This document shows, piece by piece, positions 16,903-57,513 of a DNA stretch of 64,000 bases. The stretch's first letter is position 1; the number at the start of each line of letters is the position of its first letter. Source of the DNA: Candidatus Iainarchaeum sp. (lineage in GTDB: Archaea > Iainarchaeota > Iainarchaeia > Iainarchaeales > JAZDDZ01); NCBI GenBank assembly GCA_043809245.1, contig JAZDDZ010000054.1:32001-96000 (forward strand). Direction: 5' to 3'. The notes under the pieces were generated by a model. That model worked only from the letters and a program-made list of their open reading frames with translations, was not told the origin of the DNA and searched no databases. Made by a program: the position numbers and the translations under genes.

Positions 16903-17063
16903 GCGAAAAAGGAAAACTTGGCTTTGGAAAAACGCAGTCCGCGGGAAAAAAGTGCAGGAGATGCAAGAACAGGCGCGGGCTTATCTCAAAGTATGGAATG
17001 AAGCTTTGCAGGCGCTGCTTCAAGGACGTTGCCTTGCAGATGGGTTTCAAGAAATTCGATTAG
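16899..17063 (+). CDS. rps14: 30S ribosomal protein S14 (uS14, zinc finger), 54 aa, not in the ORF track
   Basis: Manual translation MSEKGKLGFGKTQSAGKKCRRCKNRRGLISKYGMKLCRRCFKDVALQMGFKKFD*. Confidence 0.95.
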   Translation: MSEKGKLGFGKTQSAGKKCRRCKNRRGLISKYGMKLCRRCFKDVALQMGFKKFD

Positions 17064-17075
17064 TGAGATTAATGA

Positions 17076-17154
17076 AAGATTTAGGAAAAATATATAGAGG
17101 AAGGGAATCGGGAGGAACCTGGAACTGAAGGGAAACCTAGGTTTCCCTGCGGTT
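17076..17154 (+). repeat. Dispersed 79-bp hairpin element, copy A (rps14-rps8)
   Basis: AAGATTTAGGAAAAATATATAGAGGAAGGGAATCGGGAGGAACCTGGAACTGAAGGGAAACCTAGGTTTCCCTGCGGTT; perfect 20-bp palindrome at 17129-17148. Confidence 0.85.
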
Positions 17155-17157
17155 CGG

Positions 17158-17181
17158 ATGGGGTTCAAAAAATTTGACTGA
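17158..17181 (+). repeat. Recoded duplicate of the rps14 3' end (MGFKKFD*)
   Basis: ATG GGG TTC AAA AAA TTT GAC TGA versus ATG GGT TTC AAG AAA TTC GAT TAG at 17040-17063. Confidence 0.8.
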
Positions 17182-17203
17182 ATTTGGAGTTTGTGGAGAG
17201 TGA

Positions 17204-17602
17204 ATGAGAATGACATTGGTTGACCCGATTGCTGACGCGCTAGTCAACATAAAGAACCACGAGAATGCCTCGAAAAAACTATGCATTGTCAGGCCTGCGG
17301 CAAAGCTTTTGGGCGAAATACTGCGCGTCATGCAGGAGCAGGGCTACATCAGCACCTACGAGTTCGTTGATGATGGAAGGGAGGGCCTTTACAAGATAAA
17401 CCTTATGGGAAAAATAAACGAGTGCAAGGCAATCAAGCCCCGGTACGCAGTCAGGAAAAACGAGTTTGAAAGATACGAGAAAAGGTATCTTCCCGCAAAA
17501 GACGTGGGCTCGTTGATTGTGAGCACCCCCCGCGGGGTTATGACGCACAATGGCGCAAAGGAAAAGGAAATCGGCGGAAGGCTGATAGCTTACATTTACT
17601 GA
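17204..17602 (+). CDS. rps8: 30S ribosomal protein S8 (uS8)
   Basis: DPIADAL..IKN.E, G.IN.C.AIKPR, IVST..GVMTH, GG.LIAY.Y. Confidence 0.98.
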   Translation: MRMTLVDPIADALVNIKNHENASKKLCIVRPAAKLLGEILRVMQEQGYISTYEFVDDGREGLYKINLMGKINECKAIKPRYAVRKNEFERYEKRYLPAKDVGSLIVSTPRGVMTHNGAKEKEIGGRLIAYIY

Positions 17603-17631
17603 ATGAAAAAAATTGATGGAAAAGTGGGATT

Positions 17632-18821: not shown

Positions 18822-18846
18822 TTTGCGCTTTGAAAAGGTGTGAAAG

Positions 18847-19299: not shown

Positions 19300-19321
19300 C
19301 AAAGGAAAGGAATGAATTGTT

Positions 19322-21116: not shown

Positions 21117-21141
21117 TGGAAAAATGCGTTTGGTGAAAAAA

Positions 21142-21639: not shown

Positions 21640-21646
21640 AAATTGA

Positions 21647-23041: not shown

Positions 23042-23183
23042 ACGAGGAAGGGGAATTGATTGGAATAAGGGAAATTTTTAATGAAAGGGGCATGGGTTTA
23101 ATAATGAATGGCAGCAAAAATAATTATACGCAAATAACGCCATTTTGCTTCAAATCCCCCGTTAAATGGCTTAAAAAGGTGGT

Positions 23184-24261: not shown

Positions 24262-24270
24262 TTGGTTTTT

Positions 24271-24900
24271 ATGGCTGAAGAAAAACAGGAAAAGAAAGGC
24301 GCACAGCAGAAAGACGGGGGCCAGCGCCAGCACAAGCAGCCTTACTCAAAAGACCTGAGGCTCAGGGCAAGGGACACAGAAGACAAGGATGTTAGGTACA
24401 TTGTCAGAATTGCGGGAAAGGACCTTGACGGAAGCCTTCCGGTTTACCATGCGGTTCAGTCAATTAAGGGAATAGGCCAGAGAATGGGAAAAATAATCGC
24501 ATTTGCGTTTGAAAAGGAATCAGGCATTGGCTCTGAAACTCCTTTGGGAAAAATTCCCGAAGACAAGGACAAGGCATTGGAGGAAATAGTTCTGCATCCC
24601 GAGAAATTCGGGGCGCCTTCATGGACACTTAACAAGCGCAGGGACTTTGAAACAGGCTTGGACTGGCACCCTGTAATGAACGACTGGGATTTTGGAATAA
24701 GAAAAGACGTGCAGAGAATGGCGGAGACAAAATCTTACAAGGGATTAAGGCACATGTGGGGCCAGCCAGTGAGAGGGCAAAGGACAAAGAGCACGCACAG
24801 GGGCAAAGGCCCTGTTGTAGGGGTAATGAAGAAAGACGCAGGCAAGCCAGGCGCCGCGGCAGCACCCGGGGCAAAAGGCGAAAAGGAAAAAAAGAAATAA
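24271..24900 (+). CDS. rps13: 30S ribosomal protein S13 (uS13)
   Basis: RYIVRIAG.DLDG, IKGIG, SYKG.RH..G.PVRGQRTKS. Confidence 0.97.
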   Translation: MAEEKQEKKGAQQKDGGQRQHKQPYSKDLRLRARDTEDKDVRYIVRIAGKDLDGSLPVYHAVQSIKGIGQRMGKIIAFAFEKESGIGSETPLGKIPEDKDKALEEIVLHPEKFGAPSWTLNKRRDFETGLDWHPVMNDWDFGIRKDVQRMAETKSYKGLRHMWGQPVRGQRTKSTHRGKGPVVGVMKKDAGKPGAAAAPGAKGEKEKKK

Positions 24901-24911: not shown

Positions 24912-24990
24912 AAGATGAAATAAAAATCTGCGGAGGAAGGGGGTCAGGAAGACCCTGAAACTGGGGGGAAACCCTAGGTTTCCCGCGGTT
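24912..24990 (+). repeat. Dispersed 79-bp hairpin element, copy B (rps13-rps4)
   Basis: AAGATGAAATAAAAATCTGCGGAGGAAGGGGGTCAGGAAGACCCTGAAACTGGGGGGAAACCCTAGGTTTCCCGCGGTT. Confidence 0.8.
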
Positions 24991-25017
24991 TGGAAGGAAA
25001 AGAAAAAGTGATGATTT

Positions 25018-25650
25018 ATGGGCGACCCGAAAAAAACCTCAAGGCAGTATGAAAGGCCGAAAAAAAGATGGCAGAAGCAGAGGATAGAGAGCGAGAAGAA
25101 GATACTTGAAATCTACGGCCTGAAAAACAAAAGGGAATTAAGGAGAGCCGAGACAATTTTAAGGAAGAAAAGGCAGAGCGCAAGAAAGCTCCTTGCATTG
25201 CCTTTGGAGAAAAGGGAGAAAAAGGAACGCGAACTCGTTGAAAGCCTGATTAGAATGGGGCTGTTCAAGGCAAAGGCAACAGCCGACGACATCTTAAGCC
25301 TTTCAATTGAGGAACTTCTTGAGAGAAGGCTGCAGACAATCATCTGGAGAAAAAACCTGGCAAAGACAGTCAAGCAGGCAAGGCAGTTCATCGCCCATGG
25401 GCACATTGCGGTTAACGGAGTAAAGACAACAAGCCCGAGCTACATTGTAAGGCACGGCGAAGAGGCAAAAATAGCCTATTACAAGAGGCCGATAATGCTT
25501 GAACCCCCAAAAAAAGACTCAAAGGAAAAAATGAAGAAAGCATTCGAGGAAGCAGCGCCCGCAGCAATTGAAGCCGCAGAGGAAGCAAAGGCAGGGGCAG
25601 TTGAAGCCGCGGCTGAAAAGAAAGAAACTCCTGTGGAGGCAAAGCAATGA
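25018..25650 (+). CDS. rps4: 30S ribosomal protein S4 (uS4)
   Basis: [30 protein letters not shown]. Confidence 0.98.
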
Positions 25651-32887: not shown

Positions 32888-32953
32888 TTGCCTGCCCGGC
32901 AATACCGTATTATTCCTTTCGCAGCCCTAACTTTAAGGAAAAAGGTGTTATTC

Positions 32954-34618
32954 TTGGAGGAAAAGGTAAGGCAGCACGCACACCGTTACGCGGTAAAAAA
33001 TGCGTTCCTGCACTCTGGAAAAGCCGATTTGGGCGCGGTAGTGGGAAAAGTAATCGCATTAGAGAAAGGATTGGACTTCAAAAAGGCAATGCCAATCATA
33101 AAAGAAGAGGTAGACAAAGTAAACGCAATGGGCCTTGAAGAAATAAAGGCAGCATACGAAAAATTTGAAGGCTCCTATGAATTAAAGCCCAAAGAAAAAG
33201 TGCCCGGCCTAGAGCCACTTGAATGGGCTGAAAAAGGGGAAAAAGCCATTACGCGTTTTGCGCCAAACCCAAACGGCCCCTTTCATTTGGGCAATGCGCG
33301 TGCGGCAATCCTTTCACACGAATACGCACGCAAATATAATGGGCGCTTTTATCTTCGATTTGATGACACTGACCCCAAAGTGAAAAAGCCGATTGCAAAC
33401 GCAAAAGAAGTGTTTTTGCATGACTTGCAGTGGCTTGGATGCAAAGTGGACGAGGTTTTCTTTGCCTCAGACAGGCTTGAAATTTACTACGAGCACATGA
33501 AAAAACTAATTGAATTGGGCGGCGCATATGTATGCAGCTGTGAATCGCAAAAATGGCGTGAAATGACCAAGGAAAAAAAAGCCTGCCCGCACCGGGAAGT
33601 GGAGCCGAAAGAGCAGAAAAAACTGTTTGAGCAAATGCTTTCACATCAGCTAAAAGAAGGGCAGGCGGTTTTAAGGGTGAAAACTGAGTTGGACCACGCA
33701 GACCCAAGCATTCGCGACTGGTGGGCAGCAAAAATTGTTGATGAAGTCAATCATCCAAACAAAAACGCGCAGGGAAAACACGTTTGGCCCAGCTATAATT
33801 TCGCTTCCGCTGTTGACGACCACTTGCTTGGCACAACGCTTATTCTCCGCGGGCAAGAGCACGCGCAAAACCAGACAAAACAGGAGTTTTTGTACACCTA
33901 CTTTGGATGGGTTTACCCCCATGCAATGCATTTCGGAAGAGTCAAATTAGAGGGAATGGTTTTAAGCACTTCAAAAATAGCGAAAGGAATAGAGGAAGGC
34001 CTTTACACTGGCTGGGATGACCCAAGGCTTGGCACGATAAAGGCTTTGAGGCGAAGGGGCTTTGACCCCCGCGCACTGAAAGAGGCAATCATTGAAATCG
34101 GCGCAAAGCCAAATGATGCGACAATTGAAATGTCCAAGCTAAGCGACCTGGACAAAAAGTTCATTGAAAGCGAAAGCAGGCGCGCTGCATTCTTTGAAGA
34201 GCCGGTTAAACTTGACGTGATTTACGCACAGGAATCGGAAGTGGAAAAAGACGGAGTGCAGTTCTCCCTTGCCCCAGGCACACAAACATTCCTTGTGCCA
34301 AAAAAAGAACTGGAGCCATTAAAGGAGGGAAGCGTTATCCGCTTAAGGCAGGCTTACAACGTGCTTTTAAGGAAAAAAGACGAGTTCACTGCAATCGGGG
34401 AATGGGCCGGTGCTGCAAAAAAAGACAAAAACATAATCAACTGGGTACTTAATCCAATGGACGTGGAAGTGCTTGACGCGAAAAACCAGAAGGTTTTAGG
34501 CGTGACAGAGGAATTCAATGCAAAAAAAGGCGACAGGCTTTGCTTTGACAAATTCGGCTATGTTATAGTTGAAGAGGCAAAAAACGGGAAAATTAACTGC
34601 ATTTTCACGCACAAATAA
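32954..34618 (+). CDS. gltX: Glutamyl-tRNA synthetase (archaeal type)
   Basis: RFAPNPNGPFHLGNAR (HIGH), RFDDTDP, LSTSK, GWDDPRL.T..A.RRRG. TTG start chosen after AAGGTG. Confidence 0.97.
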   Translation: MEEKVRQHAHRYAVKNAFLHSGKADLGAVVGKVIALEKGLDFKKAMPIIKEEVDKVNAMGLEEIKAAYEKFEGSYELKPKEKVPGLEPLEWAEKGEKAITRFAPNPNGPFHLGNARAAILSHEYARKYNGRFYLRFDDTDPKVKKPIANAKEVFLHDLQWLGCKVDEVFFASDRLEIYYEHMKKLIELGGAYVCSCESQKWREMTKEKKACPHREVEPKEQKKLFEQMLSHQLKEGQAVLRVKTELDHADPSIRDWWAAKIVDEVNHPNKNAQGKHVWPSYNFASAVDDHLLGTTLILRGQEHAQNQTKQEFLYTYFGWVYPHAMHFGRVKLEGMVLSTSKIAKGIEEGLYTGWDDPRLGTIKALRRRGFDPRALKEAIIEIGAKPNDATIEMSKLSDLDKKFIESESRRAAFFEEPVKLDVIYAQESEVEKDGVQFSLAPGTQTFLVPKKELEPLKEGSVIRLRQAYNVLLRKKDEFTAIGEWAGAAKKDKNIINWVLNPMDVEVLDAKNQKVLGVTEEFNAKKGDRLCFDKFGYVIVEEAKNGKINCIFTHK

Positions 34619-34719
34619 AATGCCTCGCCAAAAAAGCGCTTCTTTAATGCATAAATAGGCCTTTGAACATTTTTCAGGCACATAAAAAGCCAATCGCCTT
34701 TTAAACTGTTTATTGCCAA

Positions 34720-34733
34720 TGAACATATGTTCA
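34720..34733. promoter_or_regulatory. Palindromic operator upstream of the HTH-MNT gene
   Basis: Perfect palindrome TGAACATATGTTCA; extra TGAACA half-sites at 34664 and 34741; TTTAAA TATA-like just upstream. Confidence 0.5.
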
Positions 34734-34755
34734 GTCTTAATGAACAGTGAGTTTT

Positions 34756-35373
34756 ATGCGAATGCTGCAAACCTTAATTGATTCGGATGCGAAGACAAGG
34801 CTTTTGGAAAAGCTTTTTGAGAGGCCGGGCGTATCTTTATCCGTGTCAGAACTTGGAAGGATTGCTGGCTTGTCTAAGGCATCTGTCTCAAATATAGTTT
34901 CTGAATGGGAAAAATCCGGATTGGCGCTCTCGGCACACGAGGGCAGGAACAAGATGGTTTGCATTAACTGCAAGTTTTACCTGCTCCCTGAACTGAAAAG
35001 GATTTTCGAGAAAACTAAGGATTTTCAAAAGCCGTTAGTGGAGGAGCTAAGGAAAATGCCGAGCCTAAAAAACAAGGAAGTGAAAGCGGTAATAATGTTT
35101 GGCTCTAGGGCAGGAAAAGACTTCACACATTACTCGGATTTTGATGTGCTTGTCGTGGTGGAAAACAGCAACAGCAATTTGTCTGAAAGAATCATGGAAG
35201 AATCAGTAAAAGTGTCTGAAATAACAGGCATTCGTTTTTCACCAGTGATAATGGGCACAAAGGACTTCAATGACAGATGGAAAGAAAAAGACAAGTTCAT
35301 ACAAAACATACTTAAGGAAGGCAGGGCACTCAAAGGAGGGAAATGGATTGGGAACATTCAAGCATCACGCTGA
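34756..35373 (+). CDS. wHTH + minimal nucleotidyltransferase (MNT) antitoxin
   Basis: SVSELGRIAGLSKASVS HTH; MFGSRA......SDFDVLVV. Confidence 0.88.
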   Translation: MRMLQTLIDSDAKTRLLEKLFERPGVSLSVSELGRIAGLSKASVSNIVSEWEKSGLALSAHEGRNKMVCINCKFYLLPELKRIFEKTKDFQKPLVEELRKMPSLKNKEVKAVIMFGSRAGKDFTHYSDFDVLVVVENSNSNLSERIMEESVKVSEITGIRFSPVIMGTKDFNDRWKEKDKFIQNILKEGRALKGGKWIGNIQASR

Positions 35374-35716
35374 CCTTGCAAGCGAACGCTTCCAAGTGGC
35401 GGAAGAACAATTTGATGAAGAAAATTACCACACAGCAGCGCACCTTTACATTAACTCTGCAATAAATTACCATAACGCATTATGCCAGAAATTCCTAAAA
35501 CAAATACCCTCACACAAACCGCATTCTGACACGAGTTACTTTAATGAACTCAGAAAGCCATTGGGCCCAGAATTCCAAAAATACACAGCCGCCTATCAAT
35601 TCCTCATAGGATACAAGAGCCAGGCAGACTATGGAACAGAGCTCTCATTTGAAATTGCAAAGCAAATAAAGAGGAGGGCAAGGACAATTAAAGAAATAGC
35701 AGAAGCCCTGCTGTAA
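35348..35716 (+). CDS. HEPN-domain protein
   Basis: Helical, follows MNT; A.E.F....Y..A, H.D, KSQADYG (R/K...DY motif). TTG start after GGAGGG. Confidence 0.7.
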   Translation: MGTFKHHADLASERFQVAEEQFDEENYHTAAHLYINSAINYHNALCQKFLKQIPSHKPHSDTSYFNELRKPLGPEFQKYTAAYQFLIGYKSQADYGTELSFEIAKQIKRRARTIKEIAEALL

Positions 35717-35824
35717 AACAATTATTTTTTAGGGCAAACAACCATGAGTATAGGGGAAAATACAGTTAAAAGACCTGCCGCAAATGTTTATAATTTATTG
35801 GCTGCACAAAATTGTTGTGATTAT

Positions 35825-36031
35825 ATGCAGGTCCAAATTTCAAAAAAACTCGACAAAAAAATAAGGCAGGCATCAAAAACATTGGGCTTTGAAGAAAAAA
35901 AAATAGTTGAACGGGCAATTTTGTTTTATCTTTCGGCAGTGAAAAGCCAGCTTGAACTGAAAAGAGAATTCATTGAATGGGATTTGTTAAGTGACGAGGC
36001 ACTCGGGTTATTTGAAAAGGGCTTGAAATGA
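35825..36031 (+). CDS. Putative antitoxin (ribbon-helix-helix-like)
   Basis: Small; IVERAI..YL, E...WD.LSDEAL..FE; overlaps MazF start. Confidence 0.65.
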   Translation: MQVQISKKLDKKIRQASKTLGFEEKKIVERAILFYLSAVKSQLELKREFIEWDLLSDEALGLFEKGLK

Positions 36032-36354
36032 ATAAAGGCGAAATCTGGAATGTTGAAATTCCAGCCTCAAATGGCCACGAGCAAAGCGGTTTAAGGCCTG
36101 CTTTGGTTTTATCCGAAGGGGAAGCGGGAATAGCAATTATCGCACCTTTTACAGCCAATCTCCAAGCCATGAGATACAATTATACAGTAAGCGTAGGCCC
36201 TTCAAAATCAAACGGCTTAACCATTGATTCAGTTGCACTCGTATTTCAGTTGCGCGCAATTGACTCTAAAAGGCTGAAAAACAGGATAGGCAAACTTGAA
36301 GAAAAACCATTAAGGGAAATTGAAGCACTGATTAAACGGCTGCTGAAAATTTAG
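36028..36354 (+). CDS. mazF: PemK/MazF-family toxin
   Basis: KGEIW.V......GHEQ.G.RPALVLS, NGL..DS.AL.FQ.RAID..RL...IG. Confidence 0.93.
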   Translation: MNKGEIWNVEIPASNGHEQSGLRPALVLSEGEAGIAIIAPFTANLQAMRYNYTVSVGPSKSNGLTIDSVALVFQLRAIDSKRLKNRIGKLEEKPLREIEALIKRLLKI

Positions 36355-36405
36355 CGGCAAAAAGTGCAGTGCATTTTCACGCACAAGTAAGGGTTCCTGA
36401 TCAGG

Positions 36406-39216: not shown

Positions 39217-42200
39217 ATGAGCAAAACAACAACTAAACCAATTAACTCAACTTCAACAAGGCGATTAATCCCACTCACAATACTCATTTTCTGCCTAGCC
39301 ATCGGAATATTCGCTGGAACGGCGAGCGCTGCGCACAATAATAGTGCAACTATTTCCCCAGTATGGTCCACGCCAGGGGAAATTGAAGATTACACAGTAA
39401 CCATTTGTAATGTGATAGGCGGTAATGATTCGATTGATGAAGTAAGACTTTACCAGGCAACAGGGTATACAATACAAGATCCCCCAAATCAAAAAGATGG
39501 GTGGTATCTGTCACCATACCAGCCGACCAAGCATTATTATCTATATACTGCAGAGAGTGCCGATAATTATATTGCTGCAGGAGAATGTACTGATTTTACA
39601 TTTTCAGCAAAAACTCCAGAAAACGAAGCTGCCTGCAATTTGGCATGGAAATTTGAAACAAGAGATATAACCAATGTGTGGAAAGAGGTAAATGCTTTTA
39701 CAAGCGTTGATGGGCGAGCTCCAACCATAACAAAAAATGTAATAGGACCACAACTAATGAACGGAGAAGGATGCCCTAATGGGCCAGGTGATGGAGAGGA
39801 ATGCTGGGTACAGGATCACGAGACAACTATAACTGTTTCAGTTGAAGATACCCTCATTGAAGGCGGTTGTAACCCTCCAAGTGGAGTGGACTACTGCGAT
39901 TTTACAATCACACTTGACGGTGTGCCAAATGACAGTTGGCGCATTGATGCAGAACAGGGAGCTGTTTATGACGAAATCGTATTCGAAGAAGATTCAGTTC
40001 ATGTTCTAGGCATAACTTGCTATGATGTTGCGGGAAATGATGTTACAGATACAGAAACATTCAGAGTAGACTCAACGCCGCCTGAAACCGATAAGACATT
40101 CAACGGCCCGCAGAAAATTGACGAGAAAGGCGTTGAATGGATTGACGGCGTAACAACGGTTACATTAACTTCAGATGACCCCGAAGCGGAAACGACTCCT
40201 GAAGGCGTTGACTGCAGCATTGGTGTTGACAAGACATGGTATGCAAATGAGCTTGCGGATGGCGAGAGCGCTTGCTTTAACCCAAACAATGCCGAGTATT
40301 GCCACGCAGTATTAAGAAATCCTTACGATGCGGAAGGGGCAAAGGAATGCATTGATGATGCACAAGTTTATTGTGAAGAAAACTGGGATGAAGACTGGGA
40401 CAGCTGGGCAGCCTGCGTTGAGGACCTCGCACACAATAACTGTGACGTTGATTCAAGATGGCATCTCTACGACGGAAACCCAATTCCAAAAGACGAGGAA
40501 TCCTGCCATATACTCCAGTACTTCAGTATAGATGAATTAGGCAACACAGAAGACATGCAGACAAACTGCTTCTTCGTTGACAAGACGCCGCCTGCAATTA
40601 GCAAGGATGTTGGCGATAACAAGGTTCCTCTTTGCAGTTTAGATGACGAGGGAACAGTAATAGTTGATGAATCAGAGATGAATAAAATCAAAGGAGAATT
40701 TGGACTAACAGTGACTAAAGAAGACATAGGGGACAGCATCAAATGGACTTTCGACTTTGATGAAGAAGATATTTCAGGGCATACTTCAACTGGTGCGCAA
40801 GTAATTATTGCCAACGACTCAGTGCCTTTGTTCACTTTGGGCTGGAGTCCGGGTGAAAGCACAAGCGCGCCTGTTTACAAGCCTTACAGCGGAGGCTGGG
40901 GTGCAGCAACAACTGTTTTGCCTGCTGGAATGAGTGTTTCAGGAAACTATAATGAAACCTATTACGAAATAGTCATTCCAAAAGACGCTTTAGGCGGATG
41001 CCCGTATTATTGGGCAATAAATGGCGAAGCAACCGCGCCTCAGGCTTTGGGAACATCTAGTTCAGTCCAAGAAAACTACCCTGCAAACTGGGGAAGATGG
41101 ACTGCAACAAATGCAGCTCAAGGCGGAAACGCGGACAATTGGTGGGTTACAACTAAAACACCAATTACATTGAATTGTGAAGACGTTGGACCTCATCCAA
41201 GCGGCGACGTAACAATTTACTGGAAGTGGAGGTTTGACGGCGGCGCATGGAATGAAGGAAGCTACCAAGGCGAAAGCTATGACCTATACTTTAACGAAGA
41301 ATCAGTTCACGACTTGGAGTTCTGGTGCCAGGATGCAGTGCAGAAAGAATCAGAGCACGACACAGAGACATTCAGGGTTGACGACACACCGCCAGAAATT
41401 GACAAATCAATGCTCGGAGAAGAAGAGGTTGATTACCTCGGCGACTGCCCACCGCAAGACGAAGAAGACATATGCTTTGTCGCGGATAACGGCAGGGGCG
41501 GAGTGCACATTGATGTTTCAGACCCAGACCCAACTACAATGGGCTGCAATGTTGACAACAGCACCTGTAACTACGAGCTGTGGTGGCAGACAACCCTGGC
41601 TAACTGCCAGGAATATGTTGGCCCAGACCACTTATACAATGATGGAACAGGCGAATGCTTTGTGGAAGGAGGCCAATTCGGAGAGGACGGAACAGACATT
41701 CTCTTCACACAGGACTCAACCCACAGGCTTGTAGTCAACTGTGAGGACGCATTGGGCAATGAAATGAACACAGACACAGAGTACTTTAAAGTTGACTCAA
41801 CGCCTCCGGTTACAACAAAGACTTACGGTGAACCAGCATACCCAGAGAACATCAATGAACCGGGACCATACCCGCACTGGATCACAAGCGATACACCGAT
41901 AACGCTGGAAGCGACAGACAACAAGGTTGGAGTTGACAAGACATTCTGGAGATACGCAGTTGTTGACAACCAATGGTGTGAGACAGAGGCAAGCGGTTGC
42001 TCAACTTATGACGGAGAGCTTCCTGACTTTACAGAATATACTGGAACCGTCACACTTCCGGAAGAGTCATGCCACTTGATTGAATTCTACAGCAAAGACT
42101 TGCTCGGAAACACAGAGAAAGCAAACAGGCAGTGCGTGTTCGTGGATAACAGCGCACCGGAAGTAGATAAGAACGTCGGTGAAAACAAGGTTGCCTGCGA

Positions 42201-44271
42201 GGAAGGCGAGGTATGCGATTACTACATCAACCAGAACACGCCGATAAGCTTGTCCTGCGAGGATGTGCTCCCACACCCGGTTGGAAATGTTTCACTGTGG
42301 TACCATTACAGGTATGCAAAGACCTGCGATGACCTTGGAACTGCAACTTGGTCTGAATTGGTTGACACTGAGGGAGAACCCATTTACTTCACAGAGGACT
42401 CATGCCACGAGTTAGAGTACTACTGCGAGGACGCATTGGGCAACACATCAGACACTTTCAGCGAAATAGACATTGTTGACACACAGCCACCTGAAATCAC
42501 AAGTTCAATTGACGGCCCAAGCATTGTAATCGGTGAAAAGACATACATTGACACGGTTACAAAGATTCACATTGAAGCAACAGATCCAGATCCGCACCCA
42601 GTTGACAATGTGAAGTGCGAATGGTCTTACATCTTGGATGACGGCCAGAGTATCTTCGGGGGAGACGATCAGGCACCTCCTTTGGATATAACTTTCCCTG
42701 AGGAATCAAAGCACAAACTGCACGTCAAGTGCTGGGATGCATTGAAGAACAAAAGCGAACTGGTTGAAACATACTACGCTGACCACACGCCTCCGACAAC
42801 TACAAAGACTTACGGAGACCCATTCTTCCAAGGCGAAGGAAGCGAGTGGATTAACAGCACTACACCCATAACTTTAACAGTTGACGATACAGGCATACAC
42901 AAAACAGGAATTAAGGAAACAGATTACAGGGTAACGCTCGTTGACGACAGCTACTGCAGGCCGCCGGTGCAATGCATTGGTGACTGCATTGAAAGCGTCG
43001 TTTTGCCAAGCTGCGAGAATGCAGAAGGCTCATACGCCTGGCAAACCTATGAAGGGGAGCCATTCACAATAGGTGAGGAGTCATGCCACCTAATAGAGTA
43101 CTACTCTGTGGATAACGTTGACAAGACAGAGAAAACAAAGAAACAGTGTGTCTTTGTTGACAACCAGCCACCCACTCCAGTAAAAACAGTCGGTGACCCC
43201 AACAGCGTGTGGACTCCTGGAAAGAATGGGGATGTTGAATCCTATTTCTACCCAGAGGAGACGGCTCACTGTTGGGATGGAACAGATCAAAACATTGACT
43301 GCTGGAAAGTCACATTGATGACTCCAATTAAATTGGAATGCAATGACCCACAGCCACACCCAGTTGATAATGCAAAAGTTTGCTTCCAACTTGGTTTGGA
43401 CGGGCAGGATGCAACGGAAAAATACTGCTCGCCGCGTAAATACAATGGGGAGATGGAAGACGGCTACTGCTGTGTTGGAAGTGAAATAGATCCATTCTAT
43501 TTCAAAGAGGAGTCAGAGCACAACCTGAAGTACTACTGCGAGGATGCATTAGGCAACAGCAATAAGTTGGATGTGGATGAGGAGAAATTCAAGGTAGAAG
43601 GACAGCCATTCGAGATAAAGCTCTACAAGAAATGGAATCTCATCTCAGTGCCATTCGTATTGCTGGACAGCAATGTTCAGGAAGTATTCAAAGGGCTTGA
43701 CAAAAACATAGAATCCGTCTGGTCATATGATGGAACAACAGGCGAATGGTCTGTCTACAGACCAGGAGTGCCAAGCAACTTGACAGAGATAAAACCAGGC
43801 TGGGGCTACTGGGTGAACGCATATAACAAGGTAAAGGTGCTCATTGGAGGAGCACTATTCTCGCCTGCTACAGTGCCACCGAGCAAGCCACTAGCGCAGG
43901 GCTGGAACCTCATTGGAACCTACGGTCTTAACTGGCAGGAATACCCAGACATGGATGACACAAAGTTGATTTGCGGTGTTCCATTCGGAAAAGTCTTCGG
44001 AACCAATGTCTACTGCGGTCTGAACTCACTTGTTGGATCCATACAGGAAGGGCCAAGGTGGGCTTCCCTTGTAGGCTATGTTAGATGCAGCGACTACGAT
44101 ACGCAAGGCCAGTGGACTACAATGAATGCCTGCATTAACAACTTCAACAAGTTGTATGCGGGAAGGGGTTACTGGATATACATGCGCATGAGTGACATCT
44201 ACGCTCCGGCCACAACCTGCATCTGGAACGAAGACAATATCTGCATTGACAACAATCCAAAATGGTTTTAA
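39217..44271 (+). CDS. 1684-aa secreted acidic Cys-rich surface protein with tandem Ig-like repeats
   Basis: Signal peptide; about 9 repeats of H.L.(Y/F)...D..GN...(V)D.TPP...K; C-terminal (K/G)WNLI(S/G) domain; no TM anchor. Confidence 0.85.
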   Translation: MSKTTTKPINSTSTRRLIPLTILIFCLAIGIFAGTASAAHNNSATISPVWSTPGEIEDYTVTICNVIGGNDSIDEVRLYQATGYTIQDPPNQKDGWYLSPYQPTKHYYLYTAESADNYIAAGECTDFTFSAKTPENEAACNLAWKFETRDITNVWKEVNAFTSVDGRAPTITKNVIGPQLMNGEGCPNGPGDGEECWVQDHETTITVSVEDTLIEGGCNPPSGVDYCDFTITLDGVPNDSWRIDAEQGAVYDEIVFEEDSVHVLGITCYDVAGNDVTDTETFRVDSTPPETDKTFNGPQKIDEKGVEWIDGVTTVTLTSDDPEAETTPEGVDCSIGVDKTWYANELADGESACFNPNNAEYCHAVLRNPYDAEGAKECIDDAQVYCEENWDEDWDSWAACVEDLAHNNCDVDSRWHLYDGNPIPKDEESCHILQYFSIDELGNTEDMQTNCFFVDKTPPAISKDVGDNKVPLCSLDDEGTVIVDESEMNKIKGEFGLTVTKEDIGDSIKWTFDFDEEDISGHTSTGAQVIIANDSVPLFTLGWSPGESTSAPVYKPYSGGWGAATTVLPAGMSVSGNYNETYYEIVIPKDALGGCPYYWAINGEATAPQALGTSSSVQENYPANWGRWTATNAAQGGNADNWWVTTKTPITLNCEDVGPHPSGDVTIYWKWRFDGGAWNEGSYQGESYDLYFNEESVHDLEFWCQDAVQKESEHDTETFRVDDTPPEIDKSMLGEEEVDYLGDCPPQDEEDICFVADNGRGGVHIDVSDPDPTTMGCNVDNSTCNYELWWQTTLANCQEYVGPDHLYNDGTGECFVEGGQFGEDGTDILFTQDSTHRLVVNCEDALGNEMNTDTEYFKVDSTPPVTTKTYGEPAYPENINEPGPYPHWITSDTPITLEATDNKVGVDKTFWRYAVVDNQWCETEASGCSTYDGELPDFTEYTGTVTLPEESCHLIEFYSKDLLGNTEKANRQCVFVDNSAPEVDKNVGENKVACEEGEVCDYYINQNTPISLSCEDVLPHPVGNVSLWYHYRYAKTCDDLGTATWSELVDTEGEPIYFTEDSCHELEYYCEDALGNTSDTFSEIDIVDTQPPEITSSIDGPSIVIGEKTYIDTVTKIHIEATDPDPHPVDNVKCEWSYILDDGQSIFGGDDQAPPLDITFPEESKHKLHVKCWDALKNKSELVETYYADHTPPTTTKTYGDPFFQGEGSEWINSTTPITLTVDDTGIHKTGIKETDYRVTLVDDSYCRPPVQCIGDCIESVVLPSCENAEGSYAWQTYEGEPFTIGEESCHLIEYYSVDNVDKTEKTKKQCVFVDNQPPTPVKTVGDPNSVWTPGKNGDVESYFYPEETAHCWDGTDQNIDCWKVTLMTPIKLECNDPQPHPVDNAKVCFQLGLDGQDATEKYCSPRKYNGEMEDGYCCVGSEIDPFYFKEESEHNLKYYCEDALGNSNKLDVDEEKFKVEGQPFEIKLYKKWNLISVPFVLLDSNVQEVFKGLDKNIESVWSYDGTTGEWSVYRPGVPSNLTEIKPGWGYWVNAYNKVKVLIGGALFSPATVPPSKPLAQGWNLIGTYGLNWQEYPDMDDTKLICGVPFGKVFGTNVYCGLNSLVGSIQEGPRWASLVGYVRCSDYDTQGQWTTMNACINNFNKLYAGRGYWIYMRMSDIYAPATTCIWNEDNICIDNNPKWF

Positions 44272-47746: not shown

Positions 47747-48220
47747 ATGCAGCGCACTCTTGTAATAGTCAAGCCAGACGGAGTCAACCGTGGCCTGATA
47801 GGCGACATAACAGGCATTTTTGAAAGAAAGGGCCTCAAAATAGTCGCAATGAAAATGGAGAAACTGAAACAGTCACAGCTTGAAAAGCATTACTCGCAGC
47901 ATTCAAGCAAGCCGTTCTTCAAGCAGTTGGTCGGATTCATGTCCTCGATTCCCTCAGTGTTATTGGTGCTGGAGGGAAAGGAAGCGGTAAAGGTTGTGAG
48001 GAAAATGGTCGGCGCAACAAACGGAAGGGAAGCAGAGCCGAACACAATCAGGGGGCTTTACTCCATGAGCACGCAGTCAAACCTGATTCACGCATCCGAA
48101 TCAAAGGAAATGGCTGACAAGGAAATCACGTTATTCTTTTCGGACAAAGAGCTGCACGAATACCAGAAAATGGATTGCTTCTGGATTTACTCTCCGGAAG
48201 AGCTCAACGAAAAAAAATGA
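47747..48220 (+). CDS. ndk: Nucleoside diphosphate kinase
   Basis: RTLVIVKPDGV.R.LIG, HY..H..KPFF, G.T....A...TIRG, N.IHAS.S. Confidence 0.96.
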   Translation: MQRTLVIVKPDGVNRGLIGDITGIFERKGLKIVAMKMEKLKQSQLEKHYSQHSSKPFFKQLVGFMSSIPSVLLVLEGKEAVKVVRKMVGATNGREAEPNTIRGLYSMSTQSNLIHASESKEMADKEITLFFSDKELHEYQKMDCFWIYSPEELNEKK

Positions 48221-48224: not shown

Positions 48225-48304
48225 AAGATTTAGGAAAAATGCATAGAGGAGAGGGGTCAGGATTAACATAAAACTGGGGGAGAACATTAGGTTCTCCCGC
48301 GGTT
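48225..48304 (+). repeat. Dispersed 80-bp hairpin element, copy C (ndk-dut)
   Basis: AAGATTTAGGAAAAATGCATAGAGGAGAGGGGTCAGGATTAACATAAAACTGGGGGAGAACATTAGGTTCTCCCGCGGTT. Confidence 0.85.
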
Positions 48305-48331
48305 TTGAAAAAGTGAAAGGTGAAAAAAGTA

Positions 48332-48763
48332 ATGAAGGTTTTGGTGAAAAAACTCGGCGCGGAAGTCAAAGACCTGAAATTTGCGCATGAGGGAGACGCG
48401 GGCGTTGACCTTTACGCAAACGAAACCGTGGAATTGAAGCCAATGGAGAAAATGCTTGTTTGCACGGGAATAAAAATCGCTTTGCCAAAGGGATTTGAGG
48501 CGCAGGTACGGCCGAAAAGCGGCCTGGCAGCGGAACACGGAATAACTGTTCTCAATACTCCCGGAACAATTGATGCTGGTTACAGGGGGGAAGTGAAAGT
48601 GATTCTCATAAACCTCGGGGGCAAGGCATACACTGTTGAGAAAGGGAAGAAAATCGCTCAAATGGTTTTCAACAAAATCGAGGAACCGGAAATAGTTGAA
48701 GTGGAAGAGCTTGATGAAACCAGCAGGGGAGAAGGCGGTTTTGGGTCCACGGGACTGCATTAG
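48332..48763 (+). CDS. dut: Trimeric dUTPase
   Basis: [35 protein letters not shown]. Confidence 0.97.
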
Positions 48764-52679: not shown

Positions 52680-52761
52680 CGAAATGCTGTTAAATTGATG
52701 CGGAATGTTGCGTTTTTTAAGTTATTGGTGAAAAAAATCTGAAAAGGAGTTGAAATAAAAC

Positions 52762-53570: not shown

Positions 53571-53591
53571 AAAGGAAAAGGAGAGGAGAGA

Positions 53592-53936
53592 TTGAAGCTG
53601 AACATATATTCAAGGGAAAAGAACCCTTTGCTTGAAAGGGAGGAAATAAGCTTTGGCGTTGAAAGCGCAAGCGTAACCCCTTCAAGGAAAGATGTCAGGG
53701 CGAAAATCGCGGCGCTTGTGAACGCGAAAGAGGAAACCGTTGTCATTGAACAGTTAAGGCAGCGCTTTGGCGAAAAAAAAACCGAGGGAACCGCAAGGGT
53801 TTACGCGTCTGTTGAAAAAATGAACAAAATAGAGCCCAAGCACCTTGTTGAAAGGAATTTCGGCGGCGGAAAAAAAGGGAAAAAGGAAGGCGAAGCAGAA
53901 GAAGCGCCAAAGGAAGATAAAAAAGCCGAAAAATGA
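53592..53936 (+). CDS. rps24e: 30S ribosomal protein S24e
   Basis: NPLL.R.E, TPSR..V...IAA, FG.....G.A.VY, EP.HL..RN. Confidence 0.94.
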   Translation: MKLNIYSREKNPLLEREEISFGVESASVTPSRKDVRAKIAALVNAKEETVVIEQLRQRFGEKKTEGTARVYASVEKMNKIEPKHLVERNFGGGKKGKKEGEAEEAPKEDKKAEK

Positions 53937-53946
53937 AAAACAGTTT

Positions 53947-54025
53947 AAGATGAAGGAAAAATATATGCAGGAGGGGAATCAGGAAATACCTAAAACTGAA
54001 GGGGAACCTGGGTTCCCCTGCGGTT
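53947..54025 (+). repeat. Dispersed 79-bp hairpin element, copy D (rps24e-rps27ae)
   Basis: AAGATGAAGGAAAAATATATGCAGGAGGGGAATCAGGAAATACCTAAAACTGAAGGGGAACCTGGGTTCCCCTGCGGTT. Confidence 0.85.
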
Positions 54026-54042
54026 TGGAAGGAGTGATTTGA

Positions 54043-54234
54043 ATGGCTGACAAGGGCGGAAAGGCAAAGGGAAAGAAAAAAAAATCAGATTACTACAAAA
54101 TCAGCGGGGAAAAAGCCGAGAGAAAAAACAAGGCCTGCCCTAAGTGCGGCGCAGGGGTTTTTCTCGCAGCGCACAAGGACAGGGTTGCATGCGGCAAATG
54201 CGGTTACACTGAATGGCATCAGGGCGCAAAATAA
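54043..54234 (+). CDS. rps27ae: 30S ribosomal protein S27ae (eS31)
   Basis: YY.......R....CPKCG.GVFLA.H.DR..CGKCGYT. Confidence 0.96.
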
Positions 54235-54777
54235 ATGTCCTTGGAATTTTTTCTCCAGAACATAATTTTTGACGCCTCATTGGCTGCGGCGGCTGTCTTA
54301 TTCTACCTGTTCAACAAAAAAAAGCCAGTGAAAGAGCTTTTTCTTGAAAAGCCGAAAAGCATGAGGCGCGAGCTGAAGAACACGCTTGTGCTTACCGGCG
54401 CGCTCGTGCTGGCTTCAATTGCAATAGGGCTGCTTCTATACCCCTTTGGGCTGAATGATTCGGCTAAGGCAATTGAAAAAATAGCAGAGGTAAAGGAAAT
54501 GGGTTTGTTTTTCCTAATCTACCTGTTCACTGTAAGGGTTGCGGTGGAAGAGGTTTTTTTCCGCGGCCTGCTCACGAGAAAAACAGGCGTAATAATCTCC
54601 TCTATTATTTTTGGCTTGAGCCATTTCGCTTACGGCTCGGCAATTGAATTGATTGGGGCAACTGCTTTGGGAGCGATTCTGGCAATTGCATTCAATAAAA
54701 ACAGGTCAATTTATTCAAACATCCTTGCGCACTCGGCATATAATTTTATTACTCTGGCAATGGCTGGATTGATATGA
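54235..54777 (+). CDS. CPBP/Abi (CAAX protease-like) membrane protein
   Basis: EEVFFRG, FGLSH, H..YN motifs. Confidence 0.9.
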   Translation: MSLEFFLQNIIFDASLAAAAVLFYLFNKKKPVKELFLEKPKSMRRELKNTLVLTGALVLASIAIGLLLYPFGLNDSAKAIEKIAEVKEMGLFFLIYLFTVRVAVEEVFFRGLLTRKTGVIISSIIFGLSHFAYGSAIELIGATALGAILAIAFNKNRSIYSNILAHSAYNFITLAMAGLI

Positions 54778-55358
54778 ATGGAAAAATAAGCAAAGCCGTT
54801 GAATCGCTGCGGAAAGGCGGGGTAATAGTTTACCCCACTGAAACAAGCTATGGGCTTGGGGCAAGCATTGAATGCATTGGAGCAATAAGGCGCATTAAAA
54901 AAATCAAGGGAAGGGATGGAAGGAAGCCTATTTCAATAATTGTTTCCAGCGCAAAAATGGCGGAAAAATACTGTGTACTGGGAAATGATGCAAAAAAATT
55001 AATGCGTGAATTCATGCCAGGGCCTTTAACGCTTGTTGTGGATAAAAAGAAAACCGTGACAAAGGAATTAACGCGGGAAAAAACGATTGCATTCAGGGTT
55101 TCCTCAAACAGGACAGCGAATGCGATTGTGAAAGCGCTTGGAGTTCCGATAACTGCGACGAGCGCAAACAAAAGCGGGGACAAGCCGATTTATTTGGGAA
55201 AAAAAGCTGAAAAGGAATTTGCGGGAAAAGTTGATTTTGTGCTTAATGCGGGAAACCTGCGGAGACGAAAAGTTTCAACGGTTTTTTCAGTAATGGAAAA
55301 AAAAATTCTTAGAAAGGGAAAAATTAGCGAGAAGGAAATTCTGAGGGTGCTTAAGTAA
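54774..55358 (+). CDS. sua5: Threonylcarbamoyl-AMP synthase (Sua5/YrdC, short form)
   Basis: YPTET.YGLG, K.R...KP, PGPLT, P.TATSAN.SG, STV. Confidence 0.95.
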   Translation: MNGKISKAVESLRKGGVIVYPTETSYGLGASIECIGAIRRIKKIKGRDGRKPISIIVSSAKMAEKYCVLGNDAKKLMREFMPGPLTLVVDKKKTVTKELTREKTIAFRVSSNRTANAIVKALGVPITATSANKSGDKPIYLGKKAEKEFAGKVDFVLNAGNLRRRKVSTVFSVMEKKILRKGKISEKEILRVLK

Positions 55359-55538
55359 TTGTTTAGGATTTGAATCAGAAATTATAACCACTCCCAATAG
55401 AGAATTTTTTCTTAGGACTCTGATTTTTCGGCTTAAACCTTTGCACGCCTGATTTCTACTTTTAGTGCAAAGGATTTAATGCCTCCAAAATCAGCAGAGA
55501 CGTCCACGAAAAAATTCATTCTTTATGGAGGTGGTTCA

Positions 55539-55724
55539 ATGGTTAAAATTCAACTCCCATCAAGGGGGAAAAGAAGGTTGGCTGAACAACTGGTTAGAAT
55601 AGATCCAGAGAATTTAACCGATAAGGAACGTTGGATTCTGCAAGGGGCGATTTCTGATGCATTCCCGCATCGGAAACGCACTCCCGAAAGAGCTATAAAG
55701 AGAAAAAAGAGGAATTTATTATGA
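55539..55724 (+). CDS. Small basic hypothetical protein (61 aa)
   Basis: ATG after GGAGGTGG; stop overlaps the next ATG (ATGA). Confidence 0.55.
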   Translation: MVKIQLPSRGKRRLAEQLVRIDPENLTDKERWILQGAISDAFPHRKRTPERAIKRKKRNLL

Positions 55725-56545
55725 ACCCGATTATAACACTAAACGGACTGCTTAGAGCTTATTTGTACAACAAATGGAAAAGTCCAAAAATCGAATTGAT
55801 TATTTATAATGCAAAATTTGCTCAAGTGACTGAAAAATTAAATGAAACTTTTTGTGCTATAATTGAATTTGGGAATGACCCCATATTGATAAAAAAAGCT
55901 CCATTTGGAAATAGGTTTTATTCACAAGTAAAAAATCAAACTTCCGTTCTTTCTATTGCAAAGTTAATCAGTTTAGAAGAAAAAAATATAATAAGAGAAT
56001 TGGTAAAAGAAAATGGAGGCTATTACACAAAGAATGTAGAAGTGCAAATAAATCCTAGCGAATGGAACATGCAATTTCATGACTTTTTTACTGAAAGTCC
56101 TGAAGAACAACAATTGGTAAAAGAATTAGCGGAAAACTTCAAAATGCAGAATATTACTGCAAATTCAAAAAAAGCCAAAAAATATGGCAACGGGGACATT
56201 CTTTTAACCTATCAGCAAAAGGAAGTTCCCATTGAGATTACAATACACCCTCCAAGTTATAGACAAAAAGAAATCAAAAAAGGGATTAATGCTCCACACG
56301 GCCAAAAATGGGGAAAAGTGACCTCCAGAATTCTTCCAATGTTTATTTTTTCTGTAAACAATAAAAGCCCTTCCTTCATAATAATACATAACGATTGGAA
56401 AAAATATTCTCACACACAAAAACTTAAAGAACAGATTAAAAAATCAAAATGTTTTTTAATTTATACAAATTTCCAAAAAGATTGGGAAAAATGTGTAAGA
56501 GCAGAAATTGAAAGATTCTTAGGTGATGAACTTTGTTATGTCTAG
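55721..56545 (+). CDS. AT-rich hypothetical protein, possible PD-(D/E)xK nuclease fold
   Basis: Visibly much more AT-rich than flanks; GNGDILL....EVPIEIT resembles D-x(n)-E-x-K with K replaced by T. Confidence 0.5.
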   Translation: MNPIITLNGLLRAYLYNKWKSPKIELIIYNAKFAQVTEKLNETFCAIIEFGNDPILIKKAPFGNRFYSQVKNQTSVLSIAKLISLEEKNIIRELVKENGGYYTKNVEVQINPSEWNMQFHDFFTESPEEQQLVKELAENFKMQNITANSKKAKKYGNGDILLTYQQKEVPIEITIHPPSYRQKEIKKGINAPHGQKWGKVTSRILPMFIFSVNNKSPSFIIIHNDWKKYSHTQKLKEQIKKSKCFLIYTNFQKDWEKCVRAEIERFLGDELCYV

Positions 56546-57513
56546 GAATTGAAAGCACCGCACACAGCTATGCCGTTGGAATAGTTGATGAAAAATGTAG
56601 CATATTAGCTAACGAAAAACATGCTGTTATAACTGAAGAAGGGGGATTGATTCCAAGGGAGCTTGCAGAACACCACTTAAAATATGCAAAACCAGTGATT
56701 GAAAATGCCCTCAAAAAAGCAAGGGTGCAGCTAAAAGATATTGATTTGATCGCCTTCTCTCAGGGACCAGGAATCGGCAGCGCACTGACGGTTGGAGCGG
56801 TTGCAGCCAGAGCATTGTCTTTGGCGCACGGCATTCCATTGATTGGGGTAAACCACTGCGTGGCACACATTGAAATCGGGAGAAAGCTCACAGGGGCAAA
56901 AAACCCTTTGGTTGTTTATGTCAGCGGCGCCAACTCGCAAATCATTGGATTTGAAAGCGGAAAGTACCGCGTGTATGGTGAAACGCTTGACATTGGCCTG
57001 GGAAACCTGCTGGACAATTTTGGAAGGGCAATGGGCTTGGGTTTTCCCGCGGGGCCAAAGCTTGATGAAATGTATTTCAATGCAAAAAAACTTGTTGAAT
57101 TGCCTTACAGTGTCAAGGGAATGGACTTGGTTTTCAGCGGGCTCTTGACCGCGGCAGAGCAGAAAATCGGCAAAGCGAATGAAACGGATTTGGCTTACTC
57201 GTTAATGCATACAGCGCTTGCAATGGTTTCAGAGGTCAGTGAAAGGGCTCTGGCGCACACTGAAAAAAAAGAACTTCTATTGGTTGGCGGGGTTGCTGCT
57301 TCTAGGGCTTTAAGGGAAATGCTGCAGGAAATGTGCAAAGGCCAAAAGGCAAAGTTTTTTGTTCCGCCATTCGGCGTGTGTATCGATAATGGTTTGATGA
57401 TTGCATGGCAGGGGCTGCTGGAGCACGTGCACGGGAAAAGAATGGCGCTGGAGGAAACTGAAATCAACCAGCGTTTCCGCACAGACCAAGTTCAAGTGAA
57501 CTGGATGAAATGA
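56533..57513 (+). CDS. kae1: tRNA t6A threonylcarbamoyltransferase Kae1/TsaD
   Basis: LGIESTAH, GG..PRE.A.HH, S.GPG, VNHC.AHIE, YVSG.N.Q, GETLD, DNG.MIA, R.D.V.V.W. Confidence 0.97.
   Translation: MLCLGIESTAHSYAVGIVDEKCSILANEKHAVITEEGGLIPRELAEHHLKYAKPVIENALKKARVQLKDIDLIAFSQGPGIGSALTVGAVAARALSLAHGIPLIGVNHCVAHIEIGRKLTGAKNPLVVYVSGANSQIIGFESGKYRVYGETLDIGLGNLLDNFGRAMGLGFPAGPKLDEMYFNAKKLVELPYSVKGMDLVFSGLLTAAEQKIGKANETDLAYSLMHTALAMVSEVSERALAHTEKKELLLVGGVAASRALREMLQEMCKGQKAKFFVPPFGVCIDNGLMIAWQGLLEHVHGKRMALEETEINQRFRTDQVQVNWMK

Follow-up and report, generated by a model that had tools for sequence, protein, structure and literature searches.

This report concerns a window of 64,000 nucleotides (nt) from Candidatus Iainarchaeum sp. 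(assembly GCA_043809245.1, genome G000), corresponding to positions 32001-96000 of contig JAZDDZ010000054.1 (C54). The genome comprises 1.48 Mb in 55 contigs and is about 89% coding. Coordinates count from position 1 of the window unless another contig is named. In this window, the ends of housekeeping genes appear twice, once in the functional gene and once as an apparent relic, with a small cargo between the two copies. A first-pass annotation had proposed four such sites, at rps14, rps13, gltX and kae1, and all eight peptide strings that it named are present where it placed them. The clearest sites are those at rps14 and gltX, the first of which is arranged as follows.

16899..17063, + strand: rps14 gene (PF00253), with the functional tail MGFKKFD and its stop codon at 17040-17063
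17064..17158, + strand: hairpin element copy 1, a ~33-nt A/T-rich 5′ extension and a 62-nt core at 17097-17158, scoring 86.2 bits with covariance model R1
17158..17181, + strand: relic of the rps14 tail, MGFKKFD and stop, beginning at the 3′ end of the element
17204..17602, + strand: rps8 (PF00410), downstream of the relic

The rps14 tail and its copy share 8/8 codons including the stop, and the 5 nt that differ are all silent (5 synonymous, 0 nonsynonymous), which makes for a solid duplicate. In 10/10 relatives read, the S14 stop and the S8 start are separated by 10-40 nt, so the relic occupies the ancestral position of the junction. The gltX site has a much larger cargo.

32888..34618, + strand: gltX (PF00749), with the functional tail KINCIFTHK and its stop codon at 34589-34618
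34619..36360, + strand: cargo of toxin-antitoxin (TA) type, 1.74 kb, GC content 0.40
34747-35373, + strand: cargo open reading frame (ORF) with helix-turn-helix (HTH) and nucleotidyltransferase domains (Pfam; PADLOC PDC-M05A)
35270-35716, + strand: cargo ORF without a Pfam family
35744-36031, + strand: cargo ORF with a weak Pfam match to DUF5854, under the cut-off
36028-36354, + strand: cargo ORF for a PemK/MazF toxin (Pfam, 5.3e-22)
36361..36390, + strand: relic of the gltX tail, KVQCIFTHK and stop, 15 nt upstream of the start of the next gene
36406-37827, + strand: polysaccharide biosynthesis protein gene, the next after the relic

The nucleotidyltransferase gene and the PemK/MazF gene are each paired with a small partner ORF. 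The two 30-nt tail copies contain a repeat matching at 20/21 nt, and the pair is one of eight matches in a genome-wide scan. This duplicate, too, is solid. A third, intermediate gltX relic separating the two gene pairs was looked for in the cargo and not found, and in 29 relatives no relic tail was found in the 1.5 kb that follow gltX.

The genome-wide scan used the last 7 residues plus the stop of each gene, allowed ≤1 mismatch and covered 6 kb downstream. Its input was 1386 non-repetitive tails from 1425 crude gene calls in G000, and its controls were reversed peptides, shuffled peptides and the same peptides searched upstream. Downstream copies were found for 8/1386 tails; reversed and shuffled peptides gave 0 each, and the upstream search gave 2. 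Such a scan against shuffled controls had been put forward in the first-pass annotation as the way to check its claim, and its outcome supports the recurrence of the architecture. Two of the eight matches are tandem paralogs, and the other six are gene-end relics.

coaBC on contig C7: relic at 817 nt; cargo of a partner ORF and a split PIN_2 gene
Gene on contig C47: relic at 845 nt; cargo of a PIN_2 gene and a partner ORF
Contig C49: relic at 708 nt; cargo of a small zinc-ribbon ORF and a second small ORF
Contig C53: relic at 566 nt; cargo of a ParE gene and a partner ORF
Contig C18: relic at 67 nt; cargo of a terminator-like hairpin only
gltX on C54: relic at 1772 nt; cargo of HTH-nucleotidyltransferase and PemK/MazF genes with partner ORFs

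All of these sites but that on C18 are counted as TA cassettes (5/6). The cargo toxins are recognized by Pfam (PIN_2 at 3.4e-23, ParE at 2.5e-11) and the partner ORFs have no family match, which gives the arrangement that defines type II TA modules, a toxin domain beside a small partner ORF. The cargo has a GC content of 0.40-0.42 against 0.46-0.48 in the host genes at the five sites, and 0.37 against 0.44 on C18. At the DNA level, a weak local alignment is the only similarity between the PIN_2 cassettes of C7 and C47. The C7 PIN_2 gene (C7:1748-2167, L217) is split into two ORFs and is therefore probably inactivated.

A second genome, the single-contig relative G016, lacks the hairpin element and served as a control, with 1.141 of its 1.241 Mb scanned. 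Tail copies were found for 4/1048 of its tails and in none of the three controls (0/0/0), so the phenomenon is not confined to G000. One G016 site has a pair consisting of a PIN-like gene and a small ORF downstream of a surface protein gene. Another, at coaBC, has a small gene pair that reads by eye as a RelE-like toxin with its partner. The 3′ end of coaBC (G000 C7:291-1463; G016 L295:8914-10074) thus carries a different TA-like cassette, each with a relic, in two families of the order, and it looks like a recurrent insertion site. Elsewhere in G016 (stitched position 304634 and 20 nt further on), the gene end LSSWKEGT plus stop lies in a tandem duplication of ~44 nt with almost no cargo between the copies. 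A search of the literature found no description of TA cassettes bounded by the termini of housekeeping genes.

Repeats of tRNA ends were also seen in G000. On contig C10, 27 nt of a tRNA 3′ end (C10:44680-44706) recur without mismatch 3450 nt downstream, and the 3.45-kb stretch in between probably represents another integrated element. C16 and C31 have shorter repeats of tRNA ends, spaced 171-180 nt apart. No tRNA genes were found in the window itself.

The hairpin element at rps14 is one of many. A DNA search revealed further copies in G000 and in two relatives, and nine copies align over 62 positions as a conserved stem-loop of 18 pairs, 4 of which show compensatory changes. With its 5′ extension, the G000 element measures ~95 nt. 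Model R1 recognizes 11 copies in G000, 4 of them inside the window. One lies at rps14, another at rps13 (described below), and the remaining two lie between other pairs of genes.

48246..48308, + strand: core of hairpin element copy 3 (R1 72.5 bits), between ndk (47747-48220) and a dUTPase gene (48320-48763; both Pfam)
53968..54029, + strand: core of hairpin element copy 4 (R1 85.5 bits), between rps24e (53592-53936) and rps27ae (54043-54234; both Pfam)

Among 151 genomes of the order, R1 finds the element in 8: G004 (15 copies), G022 (8), G015 (5), G034 (4), three others with 1 each, and G000. A scan with a degenerate pattern, using one genome per species, returned at least 104 stretches. Among the matches listed, all are archaeal metagenome-assembled genomes (MAGs), titled Micrarchaeota, Aenigmatarchaeota, Iainarchaeum, Woesearchaeota, Nanoarchaeota, Altiarchaeales and similar. 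In viral contigs, searched with a strict exact pattern only, there were 0 stretches, and on that pattern a virus is set aside as the carrier. At gathering score, nothing in the window matches Rfam, and around the element there are just two chance matches with E>4, so that a known RNA family is rejected as its identity.

The element is often flanked by direct repeats. The 150-nt upstream and downstream flanks of each copy were compared, with 400 mismatched-flank pairs as the control, and repeats above the 99th percentile of the control were found at 15/45 copies and at 33/78 independent copies. These repeats vary in length from 12 to 59 nt, and the downstream one nearly always begins where the element ends on its 3′ side. 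What they cover is a stop codon, a stop/start overlap, the opening codons of a gene on the opposite strand or a tRNA 3′ end. Targets include the S14|S8 junction in a second phylum, S5|L30, L30|L15 and tRNA 3′ ends. Tandem arrays of repeat-element-repeat-element occur in L078, L108 and L122. Two of the 11 G000 copies appear to sit in frame inside long ORFs (stop-free over 4254 and 1479 nt), and one copy in G004 is placed after codon 6 of an ORF.

The copies in G000 share the A/T-rich 5′ extension AAAGATT.A.GAAAAAT.TATAG (17064-17096 at copy 1). It resembles the TATA/B-recognition element region of archaeal promoters, and on this resemblance the element could be a mobile promoter. Variant forms exist in other genomes. 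In L051, L054 and L056 (G004) and in L047 and L057 (G022), the loop of the main hairpin has an extra 35-55 nt that form further hairpins, and several of these copies abut tRNA genes on either strand. In L122, a contig from a Woesearchaeota-titled MAG, two unlike variants of the element follow one another at the S14|S8 junction (~3402-3601), an S14 tail copy stands ahead of each, and their 5′ extension has a second small hairpin that is not seen in G000.

The differences between repeat copies are mostly silent. This was measured on 20 element repeats that overlap coding sequence and had been found by nucleotide similarity, the two cases from the window being left out; each case was first read individually in frame and the differences were then counted by script. 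Seven of the 20 repeats are identical, and the other 13 differ by 24 synonymous and 7 nonsynonymous codons. Random placement of differences gives a synonymous share of 0.21, and the observed 0.77 was reached in 0/5000 simulations. For a functional copy that drifts silently beside a relic that decays freely, the estimated share is 0.4-0.5 (binomial P 2.5e-5 to 0.0017). For example, the two copies of MALGKRSMENYIFEELI with its stop codon differ by five silent codon changes, one of them Ser TCC/AGC, and MKVCFYFQVHQPM is present twice with four silent changes. At the sites in G000, the counts of synonymous and nonsynonymous differences are 5/0 at S14, 6/0 on C53, 3/0 on C49 and 2/0 on C18. On C47, 63 nt that match exactly (55 of them non-coding) lie beside a 12-codon stretch with 5 synonymous differences and one Val/Ala change.

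An untranslated relic should lose its protein sense, and for this reason the copies appear to have diverged while both were coding, in different lineages. The pattern, including serine switches between TCN and AGY codons, fits two homeologous gene ends and not an ageing duplicate. On these codon comparisons, both copies may have been working gene ends in different lineages, one of them foreign.

The site at kae1 duplicates the beginning of a gene and is a weaker case.

54774..55358, + strand: sua5/tsaC-type gene (PF01300)
55360..55377, + strand: putative relic of the kae1 head, CLGFES, in the frame that starts +5 nt after the sua5 stop
55378..56532, + strand: AT-rich cargo, GC content 0.33
55479-55724, + strand: cargo ORF of 81 amino acids
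55721-56545, + strand: cargo ORF of 274 amino acids, with weak structural leads to restriction-endonuclease-like folds
56533..57513, + strand: kae1/tsaD-type gene (PF00814) with a TTG start and the functional head CLGIES at 56539-56556

The head match covers 15 nt with two mismatches, a score that was reached by 106/300 shuffles, and relic and functional head differ by Leu TTA/CTA, Ser TCA/AGC and Phe/Ile. A genome-wide search for duplicated heads (8 residues, ≤1 mismatch) gave 0/1358. However, sua5 and kae1 overlap in 5/18 relatives, in which the N-terminal motif of Kae1 starts +5 nt after the sua5 stop. CLGFES lies in exactly this register, so a true relic is plausible from its position. At the same junction, another 6/18 relatives have insertions of 87-1095 nt (L193, L197-L200, L208), in which no clear relic heads were seen. 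The kae1 cargo, including the 274-residue ORF, has no Pfam or PADLOC match. For that ORF, structural leads in the Atlas to restriction-endonuclease-like folds are weak (TM 0.34-0.42), and a single-sequence AlphaFold model with a mean pLDDT of 35 was not used; a nuclease-like product is a lead at most.

The fourth proposed site, at rps13, holds an element copy and a peptide string that reads as a repeat of the gene end.

24262-24900: rps13 (Pfam)
24933..24994, + strand: core of hairpin element copy 2 (R1 74.5 bits), between rps13 and rps4
24994..25011, + strand: claimed copy of the rps13 tail, KEKKK plus stop, low-complexity and partly the element's own 3′ end; unsupported
25018-25650: rps4 (Pfam)

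The best flank repeat here scores 10, and the 99th percentile of the control is 12. The KEKKK stretch is purine-rich and of low complexity. Its first codons are the conserved 3′ end of the element, because GGAAGGA also follows the element copy at 53968-54029. The string is present, yet the claim that it copies the rps13 terminus is not supported. The first-pass annotation had thus counted four independent sites where rps14 and gltX are solid and kae1, not significant as a sequence match, is plausible by its ancestral +5-nt register, while rps13 is unsupported. It had also stated that the cargo differs each time, which is true of the TA cargo at gltX and the AT-rich islet at kae1, but the two hairpin sites share one multicopy element. 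A 1684-residue ORF at 39217-44271 (+ strand) also lies within the span of the four sites.

We regard the duplicated ends as junction scars of small selfish DNA at gene boundaries, with displacement of the terminus as the route, a reading to which we give an even chance of being right. Two kinds of cargo would be involved: a structured element with a 62-nt core, and type II TA cassettes of 0.5-1.8 kb together with one AT-rich islet. DNA of another lineage, consisting of a gene end and the cargo, would recombine by way of the conserved gene end as homology. The recombination could be one-sided, as in homology-facilitated illegitimate recombination, or a small circle could enter through a single crossover, and the resident gene end would be pushed downstream. 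The exact repeats may point to an additional, long-staggered insertion step. Since the genes abut or overlap, only insertions that preserve the junction would survive, keeping the upstream stop and the downstream start region intact, with one junction copy in use and the other a relic.

A more specific proposal is that the conserved hairpin core of ~62 nt (and the TA cassettes) moves between lineages of DPANN archaea together with the last codons of a conserved gene or with a tRNA end, which is its only homology, and without transposase or integrase, displacing the resident end, while the hairpin acts as a recombinogenic signal. We consider this proposal doubtful.

Several observations weigh against terminus displacement. 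Neither a donor nor an empty site was found, and both the direction of the event and the foreign origin of one copy are what we infer. The closest relatives are distant, with 56% identity over the C-terminal half of GltX among 150 genomes of the order and 59% among metagenome contigs. The TA sites in G000 were ascertained by a protein-level scan, which favors silent differences. Codon preference gives no signal of direction, the commoner codon being in the functional copy 12 times and in the relic 14 times. Among the element repeats, seven match exactly; they reach 34 nt, the longest lying inside a non-conserved gene. Such repeats look like fresh in-place target duplications, which import of a terminus leaves unexplained. 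Finally, most element copies (30/45 and 45/78) show no repeat that exceeds the controls. The claim that housekeeping-gene ends serve as anchors and leave the old terminus as a scar is therefore kept in part: the recurrence of the arrangement and the mostly silent differences fit it, but a donor origin of one copy is a deduction. The wider claim of a general gene-uptake mechanism is not supported, the cargo being selfish DNA (TA cassettes and a repeat element).

Ordinary site-specific integration would account for the sites if the islets and the element were integrase-less satellites or decayed remnants, each with its own version of a gene end, mobilized in trans by tyrosine recombinases. G000 contains six genes for such enzymes (PF00589), all of them off C54, and at least one is present in each of the five element-bearing genomes searched. 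One of the six is presumably the universal Xer-type enzyme. One gene of the six lies in a 6.1-kb element on contig C27 (C27:6724-13232, L221), which has two ORFs of ~420 residues and a 430-residue tyrosine recombinase gene (C27:7223-8515). Two full-length copies of a DUF2703/thioredoxin-like gene, recoded relative to each other, flank this element; they share 76 identical codons and differ by 35 synonymous and 16 nonsynonymous ones, and the integrase gene directly adjoins one of them. The same genome thus holds an element of the classical, integrase-encoding type whose flanks are recoded duplicates as well, and ordinary integration could yield the same picture, a further point against displacement of the terminus. 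On C47, the 63-nt exact block with its diverged arm resembles a core plus arms. Repeats at tRNA 3′ ends are frequent around the element, as they are among integrating elements (PMC9897764).

On the other hand, the repeat differs in sequence and in length (12-59 nt) at each site, and many specificities would be needed. Contig C54 has no PF00589 gene, and no integrase or other recombinase gene was found in the cargo of any site. Direct repeats from the end of the target gene are present, while a recombinase gene within the element is found on C27 only. Elements with an integrase at these sites in relatives, which the first-pass annotation had named as the case that would reduce its sites to ordinary degraded islands, were not seen in the 1.5 kb following gltX among 29 relatives, a short view of relatives that are all distant. 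We think that ordinary integration is unlikely, though it has substance. The statement that there is no integrase is correct for C54 and for the cargo of the window but not for the genome, and the integrase-independent route that was drawn from it is matched by cargo without recombinase genes yet challenged by the six genes elsewhere and by the like architecture on C27.

A further explanation is an insertion resembling transposition that duplicates long target stretches of variable length in place. The functional gene, with part of its repeat copy, would later have been replaced by diverged alleles through homologous recombination, so that only the copy in use was recoded. It would account for the exact repeats of 20, 27, 30, 33 and 34 nt around copies at unrelated sites, for the precise 3′ end of the element beside repeats of variable length, and for the tandem arrays in L078, L108 and L122. 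On C47, the differences are limited to the gene-proximal part of the upstream copy, as expected of a replacement tract that ends inside the repeat. On C7, L037 and C53, however, differences extend beyond the gene-proximal side, and divergence within the repeats at S14 and on C53 is 20-25%. Divergence of this order exceeds what homologous recombination normally tolerates. In addition, no transposase tracks the element: among the five element-bearing genomes, Y1_Tnp (PF01797) occurs only in G000 and G034, TnpB (PF07282) only in G000 and G022 and reverse transcriptase (RVT_1, PF00078) in none (0/5), and other families were not searched. Three of the control genomes do have RVT_1 matches. Reverse transcriptase, IS200/IS605 TnpA and TnpB are accordingly set aside as mobilizers, being absent or present in only 2/5 of the element-bearing genomes, and a retroposon-like origin lacks in these five genomes the reverse transcriptase that it requires. 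An explanation by transposition appears improbable to us. Beside a Y1 transposase gene of IS200/IS605 type on contig C8 (C8:84815-85177), a 58-nt direct repeat (C8:84317-84374) was seen with copies 87 nt apart.

That the duplicates are chance or low-complexity matches, or artefacts of MAG assembly, is very improbable; the lysine/purine-rich rps13 pair under the controls, the kae1 match reached by 106/300 shuffles and a genome in 55 contigs would agree with it, but the controls gave 0 against 8 in G000 and 0 against 4 in G016, and the element and its flanking repeats recur in dozens of independent assemblies including single-contig genomes, so that it is rejected for rps14, gltX and the genome-wide set and stands for rps13 alone.

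Precedents exist for parts of this architecture. In fungal mitochondria, mobile endonuclease ORFs such as that at Allomyces atp6 bring a duplicate of the C-terminus of the host gene, and a homing endonuclease drives the process. Likewise, displacement here would fuse foreign last codons and cargo to the resident gene and leave the old terminus as an untranslated relic. Unlike at atp6, only the 274-residue ORF at kae1 has faint nuclease-like leads, and the other cargo consists of RNase-type toxins or nothing. Rickettsia palindromic elements (RPEs) are short hairpin-forming repeats that are tolerated in frame within genes as well as between them. By description the hairpin element is similar, in a different lineage, and its copies inside ORFs appear to keep the reading frame open. 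RPEs are not known to have long flanking repeats of variable length or to target tRNA ends.

Classical integrative elements share with these sites the direct repeats of gene ends, the mainly silent differences between element and resident copies and the frequent use of tRNA 3′ ends. They are kilobases long and encode their own integrase, whereas the cargo in the window measures 95 nt to 1.8 kb and lacks one. The sites also differ from that type in having a different repeat sequence each time, while the C27 element does fit it.

Another precedent is the displacement of C-termini in Rhs proteins and the type VI secretion system, for which Kirchberger et al. (2017, PMC5361080) propose homology-facilitated illegitimate recombination of a module without a dedicated recombinase. 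In that proposal, as in ours, the incoming module is anchored in the conserved upstream part of the gene and the resident 3′ end is orphaned downstream. The bacterial system displaces a variable toxin domain with its immunity gene. Here, in contrast, the repeated unit is 8-28 conserved codons of a housekeeping gene (rps14, gltX, coaBC), both ends encode the same peptide, the cargo is a TA cassette or a hairpin, and the host is a DPANN archaeon.

A classical MITE (miniature inverted-repeat transposable element) has terminal inverted repeats of at least 10-15 bp and target duplications of 2-10 bp, as defined in PMC11602168. The hairpin element resembles MITEs in being small, non-autonomous, multicopy, patchy in distribution and mostly intergenic. 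It differs from them in its ends and its flanks and in the absence of a partner transposase among the families searched. The consensus of nine copies starts with AGGAAGGG and ends with GCGGTTCGGA, which are not inverted repeats, and its palindrome is internal; the flanking repeats of 12-59 nt are variable, not a fixed duplication of 2-10 bp. No description of the element was found in the literature, and the MITE catalogue in the supplements of PMC11602168 could contain it.

Duplications of attachment sites at tRNA and gene ends and displaced C-termini of toxins are thus already known. What is new is the very small, integrase-less cargo at housekeeping-gene ends in a DPANN archaeon, the reuse of the same gene ends (coaBC, S14|S8, sua5|kae1), a silent-site signature put in numbers, and a hairpin element that is widespread in DPANN MAGs and lies outside Rfam families and the MITE definition given in PMC11602168. 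The element represents an uncatalogued structured repeat across MAGs titled as several DPANN phyla, located in ribosomal-protein operons, at tRNA ends and inside ORFs. The signature of a gene end duplicated around a small cargo, with silent differences between the copies, can be counted, and any genome can be scanned with it for entry points of foreign DNA and for the genes that serve as anchors.

DPANN archaea have tiny genomes and, to our knowledge, no established route of gene exchange. Should the sites prove to be satellites of integrases, they would tell an ordinary attachment-site story with unusually small passengers. If the hairpin moves by the specific route proposed above, the recoded scars would record DNA exchange across lineages in DPANN archaea. 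If one copy of each gene end is truly foreign, the scars would directly record recombination between diverged lineages, and TA cassettes would be repeated colonists of the ends of essential genes such as coaBC.

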